DNA of 64,000 bases from a virus (IMGVR_UViG_3300010340_001122), one strand, 5' to 3'; numbered from the stretch's first letter, positions 1,505-42,352 are shown. Notes: generated from the sequence alone by a model not told the origin. Numbers and translations are program-made.

Positions 1505-2863
1505 ATGAATAAAACACTTTATGTGAAATTTACTGATAAGTTATACGACATAATTGATGATATAAGTGGTCCTATCTCTGAGGCTCTTATGAGAATGGAA
1601 GGTGACTATCTATTAAAAAATGAACTAGGAATTGGATTAGTTGATGTGTCAAAGTCTGATTGGAATTTTGATGTTACTATTGATGGTAAGGTTCAAAGAA
1701 TGAAAATTGGTAAATATATTAGATATTTTTTTACTGATGACGATGGTTCTTGTGTATTTAATAATAAACAAATATTTGATTTTGGTCAAAGTTACAATAA
1801 TTTAAAAAATGGAAAACCATTGCCAATTACTAATGATAAATCATCCTATAAAAAAGTTGAAGTAACACAATTTAGTTTTAATCCTAAAGATGTTAGATCT
1901 ACATTTCTATCATTAACGACAATGACTTACCCACATGGACATGAGGAAGAAGTTATGAAGTTTATGCCAAGTGGTTTAGAAAAAGATGAATTTGGTAATT
2001 ATTATAAAATAATTGGAAAATCTGAAACGATGTTTACTTCACATTTAGATACTGCTGATAGAAAGCAGTCTAAAGTATCTATTTATAGTGTTGATAAGGA
2101 CGGAGATGAGATGTTTGTAACTGATGGAACATCCATACTTGGTGCTGATGATAAATCTGGTGTTTCAGTTATGTTATATATGATGGCTCATAATATTCCG
2201 GGTATTTATTACTTTTTTATTGGTGAGGAAAGAGGTGGTATTGGTTCTAATAAAGTTGCTGGTATATTTGAAAGTGTTGTACATTTAAAAGGTGTTAAAA
2301 GATGTGTTTCTTTTGATAGAAGAAATTATTTTTCAATTATAACATCACAATTAGGTAGACAATGTTGTTCAAATGAGTTTGCGACCGCGCTAGCTGGTGA
2401 GTTAAATAAATCAGGATTAAAAATATCTTTGGATCCAACTGGAGTTTATACCGATTCAGCTTCTTTTATAGATGAGATTCCTGAATGTACTAATGTTTCT
2501 GTTGGTTATTTTTCTGAGCATACAGTTAATGAGAGTCAAAACATATCATATCTAACTAGATTAGCTGAGGCTTGTTTGAAGGTAGATTGGGAGAAATTAC
2601 CAACTGTTAAAAAGGTTGGATTTGATGAGGAGATTCTTAGAAAGTATAAGAATTTTATATCAGATTTTAAATCTACGGTATTTACTTTAGAGACTAGAAT
2701 GGTTAGTGAGTATGGAACTGCTTATATAAAAATGGATATAGATGATCCTGATGCTACAAACGTTTATGAAGATTTACAAATGATGAATCTGTTGTTAGAT
2801 AAATATAAAATAGATCCTGATGTTTATTTTGATGATCAATTTATAAAAATAGAATTAAAATAA
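1505..2863 (+). CDS. M28/M20-like zinc peptidase with N-terminal accessory module
   Basis: SHLDT, GADDKSG, GEERG, SFDRR, YTDS and NVSVGYFSEH metal-binding motifs. Confidence 0.8.
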   Translation: MNKTLYVKFTDKLYDIIDDISGPISEALMRMEGDYLLKNELGIGLVDVSKSDWNFDVTIDGKVQRMKIGKYIRYFFTDDDGSCVFNNKQIFDFGQSYNNLKNGKPLPITNDKSSYKKVEVTQFSFNPKDVRSTFLSLTTMTYPHGHEEEVMKFMPSGLEKDEFGNYYKIIGKSETMFTSHLDTADRKQSKVSIYSVDKDGDEMFVTDGTSILGADDKSGVSVMLYMMAHNIPGIYYFFIGEERGGIGSNKVAGIFESVVHLKGVKRCVSFDRRNYFSIITSQLGRQCCSNEFATALAGELNKSGLKISLDPTGVYTDSASFIDEIPECTNVSVGYFSEHTVNESQNISYLTRLAEACLKVDWEKLPTVKKVGFDEEILRKYKNFISDFKSTVFTLETRMVSEYGTAYIKMDIDDPDATNVYEDLQMMNLLLDKYKIDPDVYFDDQFIKIELK

Positions 2864-3279
2864 TGATTTTAAAAAACATAAAACTAGAAACACTCAAAGT
2901 AATTAAAGAAGAGCTTGAATACTTTGAAGATGAATATTATGAAGAAGATGATTTTAATACGAAGGATTCTTATGAAGAAGAAGAAGATGAAGATGAGGAA
3001 GACCACCTTTGTTATCTAATTAGAACATTTCTGAATGGTAATGGTATAACATCTAGTGTTGAAAGATCAGATTTAGATATATCTGTTTATGTTTTTCTTC
3101 AAAGAAAAGAAAAATTTAAAAATATTGTTAAAGCATTCGATGTTGTTATTAATAAGATGAAAAGGGATATCCTACCACAATATGAGTTGGAGGTTGAACT
3201 ATATGAAAGTAAACAAGGTATACCTATTTTATCTTTTTCATTTTTTTACGGTGCTAAAGATGATAGTTCTCCTTTTTAA
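2863..3279 (+). CDS. Acidic hypothetical protein
   Basis: 138-aa ORF coupled by TAATG overlap. Confidence 0.7.
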   Translation: MILKNIKLETLKVIKEELEYFEDEYYEEDDFNTKDSYEEEEDEDEEDHLCYLIRTFLNGNGITSSVERSDLDISVYVFLQRKEKFKNIVKAFDVVINKMKRDILPQYELEVELYESKQGIPILSFSFFYGAKDDSSPF

Positions 3280-3340: not shown

Positions 3341-3704
3341 GGGGATGATATGAATTGATTCGCAGGGTAATGATGGTTAAGCAAGCATCGGTTTGGTAAA
3401 GTCCGATTAAAATAAATTATCAAAATCGTAAACGGAAACGTTACAGAAGTAGGAACCAGTGAAGATTTAGTAGCTGCTCTACAAAACAACTTGCTCACTG
3501 TGAATGAGCTTGAAGTAGCTTAATTGATACTTTCACAAAATTCACACTGAATCACAACAGTATAAATAGTGATAGTTTTTTGTTAGAGTGTTTTTGAGTC
3601 GAAACAACTATCTATTTTGTGAGTTAAAGAAAAACTTTCTAAGCTTGTGAACGATTGATCGTTTTTAACTGAGGAAGACTCCGGTTCGTTACCGGACATC
3701 TCCA
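3341..3704 (+). ncRNA. ssrA: tmRNA (transfer-messenger RNA)
   Basis: 5' GGGGATG pairs with CATCTCC (3697-3703) including the G3:U alanine determinant; discriminator A3704 (CCA not encoded); T-arm TCCGG-TTCGTTA-CCGGA; internal tag frame 3434-3523 ending GTA GCT TAA. Confidence 0.95.
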
Positions 3705-3736
3705 CTGAACCACTCCAAAGATAGTATCTTTGGACC

Positions 3737-7666: not shown

Positions 7667-8125
7667 ATGAATCCTCACAAAAAATTAAGAGAGTTGGGTT
7701 TCAAGAAGACCAATTTTTATAAGCCAGGTAGTCATCCTGATACTTATGAATCTATGATGGTGCTTGATAATGAGGATACTAAATGGGAGTATAGAGATGG
7801 AAAAAGAGTTTCTGTTAAAGTTGAAAAAATACATCCTAAGTCTAGCTCATTTTGGATACTAAAGTATAGTGATAATTATATTTTGTGGTGTTTGGTTAAG
7901 AATCATCTTATAGATAAGATTTGGCTTGAGAATAAATCAGGTAAAAGTCTTGGAAATAGGAGAATACTATATTATGGTAGAAATATAGAGGATGAAAGAT
8001 TAAAACTTATATTTGATATCTCTAATCGTGATCATAATCCACTTGAAGGTAAGAATCAAATTATGAATATTTTACCTAAAGAGATTAAAAGAGATTTTTT
8101 ATTGGATCAACTATTTGGATTTTAA
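7667..8125 (+). CDS. Hypothetical protein
   Basis: 152-aa ORF starting 6 nt after TATATTTG (7653-7660). Confidence 0.7.
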   Translation: MNPHKKLRELGFKKTNFYKPGSHPDTYESMMVLDNEDTKWEYRDGKRVSVKVEKIHPKSSSFWILKYSDNYILWCLVKNHLIDKIWLENKSGKSLGNRRILYYGRNIEDERLKLIFDISNRDHNPLEGKNQIMNILPKEIKRDFLLDQLFGF

Positions 8126-8145
8126 TATATAAAACCATATATTTG
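8114..8145 (+). promoter_or_regulatory. Bacteroidota-type promoter for the release-factor transcript
   Basis: TTTG 8114-8117, 20-nt spacer, TATATTTG 8138-8145; same ctatttgg/tatatttgta contexts as the tmRNA promoter. Confidence 0.7.
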
Positions 8146-8237
8146 TATTATTATGAAACTATGACTACATAATTATTAGCGAAGTGAGTAAATTACTCAC
8201 AAACAATTTTATTGTCTAAAAATTAAAAAATAAAGTC

Positions 8238-8915
8238 ATGGAACAAATTATTATAGAAATAAGAGCCGCTGAGGGCGGTCAAGATTCAAAACTTCTTGTA
8301 GAAGATTTAAGAGATATTTATCTCAAAACAGCACGAGTTAATAACTTCGATTGTAAGGTTACTAACAGAGATGGATTTGCATCTATCTGACTGACTGGTA
8401 AGAAAGTTAAGACATTTTTTAAAAATGAAAGTGGACCACATCGATGGTTAAGAATTCCACCAACTGAAAAAAAAGGTAGGACACAGACTTCAATAATTAC
8501 GGTTGCTCTAATTGATCCAAGTGATAAATTAGATTTTAATTTCAATCGTAGTGAAGTTACTAAACAATATACGAGAAGTGGTGGCGCCGGTGGTCAGAAT
8601 GTTAATCGTAGATCCACTTGTGTTCAACTAACTCATTTACCAACAGGTATTCAAGTTAAGTGTCAAGATACAAGAGACCAATGTAAAAATGAGGAATTAG
8701 CTTGGATTCGTCTTGAAGATAAACTTAGAGTAATACATGATGCGACTCAGATCAAGACAGTTTATCAAAATCGTTTCGATCAAGTTGGTACAGGTTCAAG
8801 ATCGGACAAGAAGAGATCATATAGAATCAAAGAGAATTTGGTAGTTGATCATGAAACAGGTAAGACTTGTTCATTTACTGATTTCTTAAAGGGTAGAATT
8901 GATTTATTGTCCTAA
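8238..8915 (+). CDS. RF1-type peptide chain release factor lacking domain 1, with in-frame TGA at codon 51 (readthrough candidate)
   Basis: Missed by track. MEQIIIEIRAAEGGQDSK...GFASI*LTGK...ESGPHRWLRIPPTEKKGRTQTS...RSGGAGGQNVN...HLPTGI...RSDKKRSY...DH...GRIDLLS; PxT at 8457-8465, GGQ at 8589-8597, TGA at 8388-8390, same frame throughout. Confidence 0.9.
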
Positions 8916-9656
8916 TATTAGTTTAAACTCCTCTTCACTTTTAAAGCTTTTTTTGGAGTTATTTATCCTTTTAGTTATACAAAGGTTATCAAGTGATGAT
9001 ATTTCTTCTACTTGATAACCTTTTTTAAATCCTTCAAAGATAGAAATCTTGTGGTCTATTGTTGGATATTTCTCATCATTATAATTAAATTGAAAGTTTA
9101 GGCTTATATTTTCACCATCATAGTAATCAAGTCCATTCCATTCTTGAATTAATTTATTCTTATTTCTTTTCGTTAGATTATCAATGAGTTTTCTGTATTT
9201 GATATATACATCTTTTTCTTTCTCAGATATAAAAAGATTGTTACTTTCAAAGTATTCATTGAGAGACTTTGATATTTTATCTTTGATTTCTGGATTATTC
9301 TCATATAGTTTTAAAATAGAGTTTCTTATTTTTTCTCGAACTTCTGTCCTTTTTGAGGGGTTTTTATCACCAGTCTTTGAATCCGAGTATCTTTTTTTGG
9401 ATTCATCACTTCTTTTTTTCCCTTTACAGGATAATCCAATTCTATCTTTATGCTCTTTTGATAATTTTTTACCTTTGTGTGACTCGGACAGACTTTTTTT
9501 ATGATCATCTGAAAAAATTTGACCTTTTCTTATTTCCGATTGCTTTTTATATCCACATTTTCTACAAGATGATTTTTTATCATTTGCAAAATTTAATGAG
9601 TCTTTCGATTTATAAGATATTTCGATTGAACATAATGGACAATTTCTTTTATACAT
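8904..9656 (-). CDS. NUMOD3/HNH homing-endonuclease-like protein
   Basis: CPLC/CRKC, repeated SxxHKxxLSxxxKGK NUMOD3-like units, PTIDHKISI...NLCITKRINNSKK. Confidence 0.75.
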   Translation of the reverse strand: MYKRNCPLCSIEISYKSKDSLNFANDKKSSCRKCGYKKQSEIRKGQIFSDDHKKSLSESHKGKKLSKEHKDRIGLSCKGKKRSDESKKRYSDSKTGDKNPSKRTEVREKIRNSILKLYENNPEIKDKISKSLNEYFESNNLFISEKEKDVYIKYRKLIDNLTKRNKNKLIQEWNGLDYYDGENISLNFQFNYNDEKYPTIDHKISIFEGFKKGYQVEEISSLDNLCITKRINNSKKSFKSEEEFKLILGQ

Positions 9657-31989: not shown

Positions 31990-33171
31990 ATGAAAATTTT
32001 AAACTTTTTTGATTTTATTTTAGAGAATTATAAAAAAATTGAAGTTCCGTTTCAATTTTGTCAAGAATTTGATTATGTTTTAAGAGAAATTGAATCTCCT
32101 ATTTCTTCTGAAATTAGAAAAATGAGACTCCAACCATCTGATATTTCACTCCTAAATATAGGTGATGAACCTGATATGGTATCATATACAACATCTCAGA
32201 AGTTATCACAACATTTTAATACAGAAGACCAGAGGCAACTTAATTTATTGGTTCAACCTTTGAGTAGAAATACTGAAATATATCATAAAAATCGAACTAA
32301 CATTAAAGTTGGTAGATTAGTTAGAAAACTATTTGGTTCAAAATTTAGCGATTCGGAAATTGAAAAATTTGTAAATCAATATAAATCTAGTATGGATGAT
32401 AAAATATTAAATTTTGAAATTTGGGACGGTCAAGAAATAATTGATGGATATCGATCTAAAAATTATACTTATGATGGATCTAGTTCTAATCCTCTTCTAA
32501 ATTCCTGTATGAATGATGAGTTACATCTAATTGATTTTTACCAATATGTTCCAGTAAAACTTCTAGTTTTACTGAATAACGATGGTCACATTTTTGGAAG
32601 ATCCCTTTTGTGGAAAACAGATAAGGGTCTTTTTATGGATAGAATTTATTCAGCATTTGATCAAGATTATTATAAATTTATTGAGTATGCTAAAAATAAT
32701 AATATTATCTATAAAGAGGAGAATAAAAGTGGTAATTTAATTAAATATGTAAAAGATAATAATGTTTCTTGGTTTCCAATGAAAATTAATTTGAAGTTTA
32801 ATATAGAAGATTATAGTAAAGAGGAATTTACTGGAAGTGTAAGAGATATTCCATATATGGATACTTTCATATATGGTCAAAAGAATACGTTATCTAACTA
32901 TGAACCTTTGGATAACAAGTACTATGTTCTTACAGACACAGATGGTGAGCCATTAGAAGTTATACCGCAATATGATGTTAATGGTCAAAGAATTGATACA
33001 GATCAAATGGAATACTATGATTGGTCTAATATACAGAATGGATGGGTATATAGAAAAAGTGGAATTTTTGTGGATTCGGTTATGGACTTTTTATCATTAG
33101 ATTACTTAAAAGATCCTAAAAATGGATTTATTTTTAATGAAAAAGATGGTTGGATTAAAATTAAAAATTAA
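31990..33171 (+). CDS. Hypothetical protein (SCM/GRxLLW/DRIY/PYMDT family)
   Basis: Motifs shared with 34024..36348. Confidence 0.75.
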   Translation: MKILNFFDFILENYKKIEVPFQFCQEFDYVLREIESPISSEIRKMRLQPSDISLLNIGDEPDMVSYTTSQKLSQHFNTEDQRQLNLLVQPLSRNTEIYHKNRTNIKVGRLVRKLFGSKFSDSEIEKFVNQYKSSMDDKILNFEIWDGQEIIDGYRSKNYTYDGSSSNPLLNSCMNDELHLIDFYQYVPVKLLVLLNNDGHIFGRSLLWKTDKGLFMDRIYSAFDQDYYKFIEYAKNNNIIYKEENKSGNLIKYVKDNNVSWFPMKINLKFNIEDYSKEEFTGSVRDIPYMDTFIYGQKNTLSNYEPLDNKYYVLTDTDGEPLEVIPQYDVNGQRIDTDQMEYYDWSNIQNGWVYRKSGIFVDSVMDFLSLDYLKDPKNGFIFNEKDGWIKIKN

Positions 33172-33181
33172 TATATAATTA

Positions 33182-38789: not shown

Positions 38790-40436
38790 ATGTTAAGAGA
38801 TCCACTCGTAGTAATGAGGTTGAATGTTAAGAAAAGAAATGGCCAAACAGAAGTATTTGAGGCCGAAAAAATTAATAAGGTTTTAATTTGGGCTACATCT
38901 GGTATAAGTGGAGTTTCCGCATCTGACGTGGCGATGAACTCCCGACTACAATTTTATCCAGGTATAAAAACCTCTGAAATACACAAAGTTTTGATTCAAT
39001 CAGCTGTTGATTTGATTTCAGATAAAAATCCAAACTATCAATATGTTGCTTCGAACTTATTGAATTATTTAGTTCGTAAAGAAGTTTTTGAAACGAAGAA
39101 AGAATTACCATCTCTTTTAGAATGTATCAACCGAAACATTAAAGTAGATTTATATGATTCATTGATATTGTCAAAATATAATAAAGAAGAAATTTCTAAA
39201 TGTGATTCATATATAAAACATGAACGAGATTATGATTTGACATATGCTGGTCTTCAACAATTGATTGATAAATATCTTGTTAAAGATAGAAGTACTGGTA
39301 AATCATATGAAACACCACAATTTTGCTTTATGATGATTGCGATGACTGTTTTTGCAGACTATGATAAATCTACAAGAATTGAATTTGTAAAAGAATTGTA
39401 TGATATGATTTCTGAACATAAGATTTCTCTACCAACACCGATTATGGCTGGTATTAGAACTCCTAATCGTCAATTTTCAAGTTGTACTTTAATTGAGGTT
39501 GGTGATTCACTAGACTCAATATTTCATGGTAATGTTGCAATTGGTCAGTATGTTGCTAAAAGAGCTGGTATTGGTATTAATGCTGGTCAAATTAGAGCAC
39601 TTGGTTCTAAAGTTCGTAACGGTGAAGTAGTTCACACAGGTGTTATTCCTTTCTTCAAAATGTTTCAATCAACTCTACACTCTTGTTCTCAAGGAGGTAT
39701 TCGTAAAGGATCAGCAACTCTTTATTTCCCTTGGTGGCATAAAGAGATTGAAGATGTTCTTGTATTGAAAAATAACAAAGGTACTGATGATAATCGTGTA
39801 AGACACATGGATTATGGTATTCAGTTTGAGAAAACATTCTATAATCGATTCATTTCAAACGGTGATATTGCACTTTTCTCCCCTTCTGATGTACCAGGTC
39901 TTTATGATGTTTTTGGACTTCCAGAATTTGAAGAAATGTATTTGAAATACGAATCTGATAAAAAGATTCCTAAGAAATTTGTTAAGGCGAGGGAGTTGAT
40001 GAATTCTTTTGCTCAAGAAAGAATAGGTACTGGACGTATGTATGTTATGAATATCGATAATGTTAATACAAATTCTCCTTTTATTGAAAGATTGAAAATG
40101 TCTAATCTTTGTTTAGATATAGAGACATCATTTGTAAATTCTGTTGAAATAGATGGTGTTTTATATGAGAAAATGCAGTTATCTGAACTAATTGAAATAT
40201 TCAATAGTGGTAAAAACATAAAAGTCCTATCTAAGAATTTATATAATGGTGAGATGGAATTCAAACAGGTTGAGAAGGCATGGATAACTAAAGAGGATGC
40301 TGATGTTATGGAAATAGAAGATGTTGATACAGGATTTAAAATAATTTGTACACCAGACCACTTAATTTTTACAAAAAATAGAGGATGGATTGAGGCACAA
40401 AATTTAGATGAGAATGATATTTTAGATTTAATTTAA
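38790..40436 (+). CDS. nrdA: Class Ia ribonucleotide reductase alpha, N-terminal part fused to split-intein N-fragment
   Basis: ATP cone (VKKRNG), YETPQ, PTP, QFSSC, SQGGIRKG, MSNL then intein C1; start may be 38814. Confidence 0.95.
   Translation: MLRDPLVVMRLNVKKRNGQTEVFEAEKINKVLIWATSGISGVSASDVAMNSRLQFYPGIKTSEIHKVLIQSAVDLISDKNPNYQYVASNLLNYLVRKEVFETKKELPSLLECINRNIKVDLYDSLILSKYNKEEISKCDSYIKHERDYDLTYAGLQQLIDKYLVKDRSTGKSYETPQFCFMMIAMTVFADYDKSTRIEFVKELYDMISEHKISLPTPIMAGIRTPNRQFSSCTLIEVGDSLDSIFHGNVAIGQYVAKRAGIGINAGQIRALGSKVRNGEVVHTGVIPFFKMFQSTLHSCSQGGIRKGSATLYFPWWHKEIEDVLVLKNNKGTDDNRVRHMDYGIQFEKTFYNRFISNGDIALFSPSDVPGLYDVFGLPEFEEMYLKYESDKKIPKKFVKARELMNSFAQERIGTGRMYVMNIDNVNTNSPFIERLKMSNLCLDIETSFVNSVEIDGVLYEKMQLSELIEIFNSGKNIKVLSKNLYNGEMEFKQVEKAWITKEDADVMEIEDVDTGFKIICTPDHLIFTKNRGWIEAQNLDENDILDLI
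40110..40433 (+). mobile_element. Split intein N-fragment (108 aa)
   Basis: Starts CLDIET directly after extein SNL; block B IICTPDHLIFTKNRGWIEAQNL; followed by stop. Confidence 0.9.
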
Positions 40437-42319: not shown

Positions 42320-42352
42320 TATAGGGACTTGTTGTTGTTTAATATATAATTA

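Follow-up and report, generated by a model that had tools for sequence, protein, structure and literature searches.

Autoregulation of release-factor synthesis is a textbook case of recoding and, to our knowledge, is known only for RF2. In prfB, a +1 frameshift at CUU UGA C makes the synthesis of a class-I release factor depend on failed termination at a stop codon that is read by only one factor, with feedback on termination capacity. Among 12,753 bacterial genomes surveyed in 2025, programmed frameshifting was found in prfB and not in prfA, and TAG was never the sensing codon (PMC12421855). In leader-peptide attenuation (ermC, ermB, cat and secM-secA), the position or dwell of a ribosome on a short upstream open-reading frame (uORF) opens a structure that hides the start of the next gene, and in tnaC-tnaA the control lies in the fate of the ribosome at the UGA of the leader peptide, namely in RF2 action. 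In AMD1, readthrough ribosomes pause at a second in-frame stop with a regulatory consequence (PMC13025110). Release factors are also encoded by phages: huge phages carry RF1 and RF2 genes (PMC7162821), and code-change modules (RF1, a UGA-suppressor tRNA and TrpRS; Borges et al., 10.1101/2021.08.26.457843) link a phage RF1-type factor to UGA in a host with the standard code. The locus described here would resemble these systems in the features just named and differs from each of them in others. In the searchable literature, we found no published description of its leader, of the in-frame stops in its release-factor (RF) gene or of the CUU UAG C sites that occur in some of its relatives.

The locus lies in the window, that is, the whole 64-kb stretch of viral DNA analysed here, which contains 27% G+C and is densely coding under the standard code. 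Genes of phage type in the window include those for a Dam-like methylase, a ribonucleotide reductase with an intein, helicases and a NUMOD3 protein. The top matches of the RF protein of the window (49–57% identity) are found in the 'uncultured phage' genomes LR756501-4 and LR745206 (634–735 kb), which are Mahaphage genomes with Bacteroidetes as predicted hosts (PMC7162821). The source of the window is an AT-rich huge phage, kin of the 'Mahaphage' group. The gene for the ribonucleotide reductase large subunit (38790–40436, plus strand) has its end broken by an intein splicing domain (Pfam PF14890). The gene for the NUMOD3-motif protein (8904–9656, minus strand), probably a homing-endonuclease-like gene, lies tail to tail with the RF gene, the two overlapping by 12 nt.

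The RF gene itself (8238–8915, plus strand) consists of 225 codons and encodes PCRF (Pfam PF03462, E-value = 6e-17) and RF-1 (PF00472, E-value = 2e-26) domains with a PPT motif (of the PxT type) and GGQ, without domain 1. In NCBIfam comparisons, residues 3–223 align to positions 105–333 of the RF1 model, and the protein scores 181 bits with the prfA model and 120 bits with the prfB model. A full-length RF1 would have about 360 aa with domain 1; with its 225 aa, and 181 bits against an equivalog cut-off of 400, the protein did not qualify as one, and by its domains and model scores it is a short RF1-like factor and no prfA equivalog. A lone in-frame TGA occupies codon 51 (8388–8390, in the context ATC TGA CTG), and the alignment to the RF1 model runs uninterrupted across it. 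A prfB-type +1 frameshift is absent, the homology staying in the same frame on both sides of ATC TGA CTG. An internal restart downstream of the TGA was also rejected: the next in-frame ATG, GTG or TTG, a TTG, comes only after about 150 codons, and no ORF of at least 30 aa begins there. Because the RF frame offers no usable restart after the TGA, the catalytic part of the factor is obtainable only via readthrough of the TGA. In contrast to prfB, the window gene thus has in-frame readthrough and no frameshift, and its UGA is not read by the encoded RF1-type factor.

The RF gene is the sole gene split by TGA in the 64 kb, and TGA closes ten of the 56 long ORFs. A phage-wide code in which TGA means tryptophan (code 4) was rejected, given this normal use of TGA as a stop, the lack of any other split gene and the fact that TGG never substitutes for the TGA in homologues. 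In LR756502, LR756501 and the 134-kb contig of the closest relative, where about four-fifths of the tRNAs were read, neither a UCA nor a CUA anticodon turned up. As the simplest assumption, we take the UGA to be decoded by near-cognate reading in a leaky context. A different explanation is that a stage-specific phage suppressor tRNA or hyper-misreading tRNA reads the UGA in the RF gene and in the uORF of its leader, as in the code-change programme of TGA-recoded phages. The 50–66 tRNA genes of the relatives and the position of the RF gene beside a tRNA cluster in LR756501 would suit such a temporal control, and code-4 phages have been reported to encode RF1 together with a UGA suppressor tRNA (preprint 10.1101/2021.08.26.457843). 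However, the anticodons read in the three relatives, the ordinary role of TGA in the window with the RF gene as the only exception, and the absence of TGG from codon 51 all speak against it, and we regard it as quite improbable. The code-change modules are reported to use the standard code and to be free of in-frame stops, whereas in the window, where TGA is an ordinary stop, 'readable' UGAs occur only in the RF gene and its leader, and a suppressor tRNA was not seen in the relatives. In LR756501 (735 kb), the tRNA cluster that the RF gene directly adjoins is large (358468–367661 for this locus).

Phage, IMG/VR and metagenome collections yielded about 160 loci that carry a homologous short RF gene (designated by L numbers below). 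Over 164 distinct RF homologues, 139 in-frame TGA, nine in-frame TAG and no in-frame TAA were counted, all at alignment positions 30–57, and the stops cluster at positions 36–39, 43 and 51. At position 51, the site used in the window, 62 TGA and six TAG were counted among the 164, and the homologues without a stop there have E, L, K, C or R; W (TGG) was never found. Because W never replaces it, the stop itself seems to be what is kept at position 51. The base after the in-frame TGA of RF genes is A in 56 and C in 44 cases, so that T and G never occur (100 of 100 are A or C); where TGA is the genuine stop of a long ORF in these loci (n = 40), it is T in 17, A in 15, G in seven and C in one. Where leucine follows the in-frame TGA, its codon is CTN in all 44 cases, though TTR makes up 57% of the leucine codons of these genes. 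UGA-C is the weakest termination signal in bacteria. The context of the UGA in the RF family points to selected readthrough. The UGA of the leader is followed by C in the window subfamily and, in the other leaders, mostly by A and once by G. The first-pass annotation had seen a shared UGA-CUR context in the leader UGA and the internal stop of the RF gene, and this is borne out by the counts of the +4 base and the leucine codons.

Seventeen homologues require a +1 frameshift instead. In the AT-rich loci L062, L065, L074, L077, L079, L082, L145, L147 and L177, the shift is at CTT TAG C at position 51 (about 2650–2662 in each locus), which is the exact place of the in-frame TGA of the window; this site mirrors the CUU UGA C of prfB, but with an RF1-specific stop. 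In the G+C-richer L006, L081, L085, L179 and L181, whose motif is PPT, CTT TGA C follows a GGAGG-like tract near position 37 (about 2600–2615), and L164 has CTT TAG T. All of the RF genes with a +1 frameshift have PxT, a motif that was favoured by the search patterns. In several of the frameshift-type relatives, a tRNA gene and a terminator-like hairpin precede the RF gene in place of a uORF. In L010 and L032 (about 2990–3025 of L010), the RF frame is without a start codon, and the -1 frame has an ATG that opens the string ATG GAA ACA ATT TGT AAT TGA; in L010, the normal N-terminus would be regained by shifting +1 at AAT TGA A, and position 51 is TAG, not TGA. L049/L051 contain two RF-like sequences about 1 kb apart (1454–1648 and 2501–3169): an N-terminal fragment, which has two in-frame TGAs, and a full copy, which has one.

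In the window, the RF gene is preceded by a short leader on the same strand. At its head is a host-type promoter, TTTG-N20-TATATTTG (8114–8145), with TTTG at 8114–8117, TATATTTG at 8138–8145 and the phage motif TTAATATATA (8122–8131) within the spacer. The sigma-A promoter consensus of Bacteroidetes is TTTG/TAnnTTTG (-33/-7), reportedly described by Bayley et al. in 2000, and we take the TTTG located 20 nt 5' of TATATTTG to complete this consensus before the mini-ORF. TATATTTG is retained in L023, L104, L110, L108, L028, L116 and L035, where it lies 4–7 nt 5' of the uORF ATG, and in at least ten leaders the uORF ATG is 3–8 nt past TATATTTG or AATATATA. The motif AATATATA (often in the form TTAATATATA) is probably the phage's own promoter type, judging from its placement: 18 of the 33 copies in the window are within 60 nt upstream of gene starts, against 0.9 expected. 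Copies are found 4–22 nt upstream of many starts, for example at 1480–1500, 33165–33180 and 42335–42350.

The mini-ORF, ATG AAA CTA TGA (M-K-L-stop; 8153–8164), begins 7 nt after TATATTTG, and its UGA is in a UGA-C context. Three other genes had been said in the first-pass annotation to start 4–6 nt past the same element. The spacing was confirmed, with gene 7667 beginning 6 nt and gene 21748 beginning 4 nt past TATATTTG, and gene 23040 beginning 4 nt past its box, but the identity of the box was not, since that of gene 23040 is TATCTTTG, which fits TAnnTTTG and is not the identical 8-mer. The other parts of the leader are where that annotation had placed them, with TATATTTG followed by an ORF that extends to the TAG (8153–8179), a hairpin (8184–8200) and the RF ATG (8238). 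Because the starts follow the promoter box so closely, the mini-ORF and the mRNAs of genes 7667, 21748 and 23040 would be leaderless or nearly so, and the mini-ORF ATG is probably at, or at most 3 nt from, the 5' end of the transcript. A short ORF upstream of the RF gene, as known from erm and cat, is present at 8153–8164, in-frame ORFs are kept in the relatives, and the mini-ORF and the RF gene presumably share a transcript.

The UGA of the mini-ORF opens an 18-mer, TGA CTA CAT AAT TAT TAG (8162–8179, plus strand), which consists of an RF2-specific stop, four sense codons (L-H-N-Y) and an RF1-specific stop. In the form TGA-NTN-CAT-AAT-TAT-TAG with 0–2 mismatches, it recurs before RF genes in a family of nine members (the window, L023/L007, L103, L104/L008, L110, L027, L001, L116 and L141). 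The RF identity to the window across these relatives is 48–88%, and the distance from the end of the 18-mer to the RF ATG is 49–62 nt in all nine members. The 18-mer is the best-conserved block of the leader, above the conservation of the RF protein, and other parts of the leader are unalignable between subfamilies. A relaxed motif scan gave no members beyond these nine. The 18-mer is single-copy in the window, and elsewhere in IMG/VR and in 185,579 genomes only chance matches in unrelated sequence were found, without a nearby RF gene, so that a generic repeat or promoter motif was rejected.

Throughout the 18-mer family, an ORF with an in-frame ATG enters the UGA, and its length is 3, 4, 8, 12, 14 or 65 codons. 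The peptides are MKL in the window and L104, MFKI in L023 and L103 (encoded with TTC in L103 where L023 has the synonymous TTT) and MEL in L110; the ORF has 12 codons in L141 and 14 in L116, and in L001 it is a 65-codon gene. The ATG is shifted by exactly 3 nt between the window and L023. In L027, AGA replaces TGA and the frame is open through to the TAG (MKFRIHNY-stop). Because the ATG moves in frame, the length of the ORF varies and the AGA of L027 keeps the frame open, the leader ORF looks like a frame under translation, its end fixed by the UAG and its passage gated by the UGA. The first-pass annotation had named as a check on its proposal whether uORF, UGA and hairpin are conserved ahead of homologous RF genes. 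They are, and beyond what could be expected: the in-frame pair of UGA then UAG and a hairpin 0–4 nt past the UAG persist while the upstream ORF, the sequence of the hairpin stem and the type of promoter change. It might be argued that an ATG...TGA...TAG string with a small inverted repeat is common in AT-rich intergenic DNA, short ORFs and weak hairpins being frequent at 27% GC. However, an 18-mer that is near-perfect at 48% RF identity, its fixed spacing to the RF start, the compensatory changes in the hairpin and the 5-fold enrichment relative to control regions (both described below) make a chance origin hardly credible.

RF leaders without similarity to the 18-mer repeat the same layout of an ORF, TGA, 3–5 codons and an in-frame TAG. 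In L028, an ORF of 13 codons is followed by TGA GCT TTC TTG TAG. In L109/L111, the ORF is a homologue of the 65-aa gene and continues with TGA ACA TTC TTG TAG, and in L106/L029, it is the upstream gene (read by eye, and presumably IscU-like), which continues with TGA ACT GAT TAT TAG. L108, L118 and L043 have further tandem-stop leaders. When tandems ending 30–130 nt before the RF ATG were counted, TGA-(2–6 codons)-TAG was present in 17 of the 71 AT-rich RF leaders and in 13 of the 273 control regions, the controls being the sequences ahead of further long genes from these loci (odds ratio 6.3, Fisher p = 5e-6). The tandem TGA...TAG is thus enriched about 5-fold in RF leaders. After the clustering of similar leaders, it remains in 10 of 47 clusters (11 with L109), against a background of 4.8%; this limitation to about one-quarter of the RF leader clusters counts against the reading of the leader as a switch that is set out below. 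Other ordered stop pairs in RF leaders showed no enrichment, nor did TGA or TAG as the first stop of the uORF in general, and a general excess of TGA or TAG first stops was accordingly rejected in favour of the ordered TGA-then-TAG pair.

UAG is the rarest stop in the window (two of the 56 long ORFs) and among the rarest in the relatives (34 of 389), TAA closes 81% of the genes in these phages, and TGA closes only 10–18%. These frequencies bear on the possibility that the upstream ORF simply brings ribosomes to the RF start by translational coupling, the UAG being a fail-safe behind a leaky UGA and neither RF1 nor RF2 being measured. Genuine upstream genes do act as the uORF in L001, L109 and L106, and a backup stop would be useful behind UGA followed by C or A. 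However, after ordinary TGA-terminated genes the next stop is TGA in 16 cases, TAA in 14 and TAG in ten, so that no preference for a TAG backup exists, and it is hard to see why the second stop of the leaders should be TAG when TAA is so common, or the first stop TGA when so few genes end in it. Coupling without sensing is for us an improbable account of the leader.

Hairpin 1 (GTGAGTA-aat-TACTCAC, 8184–8200) has a 7-bp stem, GUGAGUA/UACUCAC, and starts 4 nt past the UAG; its region beats shuffled sequences (z = -3.1 in the window). A hairpin starting 0–4 nt past the UAG was significant in 10 of the 15 tandem leaders, and the other five were without a clear hairpin. The post-UAG stems have three unrelated sequences, namely the GUGAGU type, the AUUAAUU types and GUCCGC (L028). 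Within the close subfamily, hairpin 1 shows a compensatory change from G-C to U-A in L027 and a G-U pair in L104. Hairpin 2 (ACAAU-uuu-AUUGU, 8203–8215) is weak and is kept only in the close subfamily. Enclosing both, a long-range stem is predicted between the 5' strand CUAUGACU (8159–8166), which overlaps the UGA, and the 3' strand AGUCAUGG (8234–8241), which includes the RF AUG (8238–8240). In an alternative register, CAUAAUUAUUA (8168–8178) is predicted to pair with 8230–8240, and this is the consensus form in the relatives. The minimum free energy fold of the leader with the long-range stem has z = -2.8, and the predicted duplex of the window's stop region with its RF start region has -10.5 kcal/mol (p = 0.004–0.006 relative to shuffled or flanking windows).

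The register of CUAUGACU with AGUCAUGG is found in the window and L104, that of CAUAAUUAUUA with UAAUAAUUAUG in L023, L103, L110 and L027, and the CAUAAUUAUUA/UAAUAAUUAUG pairing with one mismatch in L001, L116 and L141. The RNAalifold consensus of six close leaders consists of an 11-bp closing stem and two hairpins, and in L104 a double change from U-A to C-G, for which the spacer codon AAT became the synonymous AAC, preserves one pair of the stem. Eleven of the 15 leaders, namely all nine of the 18-mer family (in three registers), L028 and L109, have a stop region with significant complementarity to the RF start (p = 0.002–0.03). Such complementarity is not significant in L106, L108, L118 and L043, that is, in four of the six tandem-stop families, and was rejected as a universal feature of the leaders. 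Start-codon pairing probability alone was likewise rejected as evidence, a third of the control genes in this AT-rich DNA (18 of 53) having equally high values (P of at least 0.8). Because control starts often pair, what speaks for the long-range stem is the constancy of the partner, not the mere fact of pairing. The covariation of the stem amounts to three pairs in six sequences, both strands being conserved and not freely covarying, which is a further point against the switch reading.

This conservation of both strands in sequence, together with the good fold z-scores, could be taken to mean that RNA structure is all that matters: the masking stem and the hairpins would be opened by temperature, a protein or RNase, and the UGA, UAG and ATG would be kept merely as paired sequence. 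The indirect nature of the evidence for uORF translation leaves room for such a view. However, a purely structural element would not be expected to retain an in-frame ATG despite its shifting position and the changing length of the ORF, or to leave the frame open when TGA becomes AGA in L027. Nor would it account for unrelated spacers that again yield TGA then in-frame TAG, with an enrichment specific to the ordered pair. We judge structure without translation to be unlikely.

The first-pass annotation had called the leader attenuator-like, a reading that was not supported. Between 7900 and 9000, nothing terminator-like was found, and hairpin 1 is followed by AAACAAUUUUAUUG and not by a U-run; because of this, a transcription attenuator is unlikely, an intrinsic terminator was rejected, and unmasking of the RF start appears to be the better-supported output. 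The control of tnaC uses Rho-dependent transcription termination and free tryptophan, whereas the window has no terminator or rut-like feature, and unlike that of tnaC, the output of its leader is probably translation initiation. In a scan of the window with Rfam 15, there was no match at the gathering thresholds and only chance-level matches were seen in 8080–8420, so that the leader does not belong to an RNA family known in Rfam.

The leader is a conserved and almost certainly functional cis-regulatory unit of the phage RF gene. Its anatomy, conservation, leaky stop context and complementarity to the RF start can best be read at present as a sensor of ribosome position at the UGA and UAG, as the first-pass annotation had proposed, the inferred output being the unmasking of a start site and not attenuation. 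To the full proposal, a ribosome-operated translational switch for the phage RF1-like gene in which a stop at the UGA or UAG unmasks the RF start, we give an even chance. The host-type promoter would produce an mRNA that starts at, or 3 nt before, the AUG of the mini-ORF. As long as no ribosome is on the RNA, the stretch that contains the two stops and their surroundings would pair with the RF start region and mask RF initiation, aided by the two small hairpins, which would shorten the loop. A ribosome on the mini-ORF would open the masking stem. With rapid RF2 action at the leaky UGA-C, the ribosome would depart, leaving the hairpin intact, and the stem would re-form. If the UGA is read through, the ribosome would proceed by four codons to the UAG, which is readable only by RF1-type factors. 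At the UAG, its mRNA channel would enclose the stem's entire 5' strand together with the 5' arm of hairpin 1, and the RF start would stay accessible until termination there is complete. Low RF2 capacity would thus give more readthrough and more output, low RF1 capacity would give a longer dwell at the UAG and again more output, and a build-up of the phage RF1-like protein would lower the output. Codon 51, the in-frame UGA of the RF gene, would be a second pass of the same RF2-dependent gate. Extra on-demand activity of the RF1 type would make sense because UAA, which ends 81% of the genes, is readable by either factor.

The geometry of the ribosome fits the switch. Taking the usual dimensions of the ribosome, which we assume to hold here, a ribosome with the UGA (8162) in the A site would have its channel extend to about 8169–8174, leaving hairpin 1 untouched and opening only the foot of the consensus stem. 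With the UAG (8177) in the A site, the entrance would be at about 8184 and the channel would extend up to about 8189. Hairpin 1 would accordingly be melted by a ribosome waiting at the UAG and not by one at the UGA. The spacing between the UAG and the hairpin is 0–6 nt in the relatives, so that the geometric relation is preserved. Two features of the window count against the switch: its best stem overlaps the UGA, so that any ribosome on the mini-ORF would open the stem and the UAG is not strictly needed, and the gating codon UGA is one that the encoded RF1-type factor cannot read.

The proposed switch differs from erm, cat and secM in that the trigger would be the rate or place of termination at two factor-specific stops and not elongation arrest by a drug or a peptide; in addition, the window-type uORF would be leaderless and can be as short as three codons. 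It adds to the scheme of prfB, which has no such leader, a tandem-stop uORF with masking of the start. AMD1 differs in being eukaryotic, with stops that are 384 nt apart, a long arrest peptide and a queue of ribosomes that represses the same ORF. In the leader of the window, an RF2-only codon and then an RF1-only codon are offered to one ribosome, and if the switch is real, it would be a small natural device for sensing RF1 and RF2 activity. Taken together with the in-frame stops and the frameshift sites, the leader suggests several new ways by which phages measure termination capacity. It may be that the short RF1-type factor of huge phages with Bacteroidetes-like hosts is wired to termination capacity by interchangeable devices, namely the two-input uORF sensor, UGA or UAG readthrough at one fixed position of the gene and, in some lineages, the CUU UAG C +1 shift at the same position; this is a tentative generalization, which we hold to be nearly as probable as its negation. 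If it is true, the CUU UAG C shift would give prfB autoregulation its first counterpart of the RF1 type, and there would be a reason for huge phages to carry release factors at all. It would also call for caution with gene callers, which are prone to split or miss such RF genes.

A candidate tmRNA of the window (3341–3707, plus strand), which was missed by ARAGORN, matches Rfam RF00023 over its full length, below the threshold (36.7 bits against 47; E-value = 3.6e-13). Its promoter is TTTG-N20-TATATTTG with TTAATATATA within, and is nearly identical to the promoter of the RF leader.
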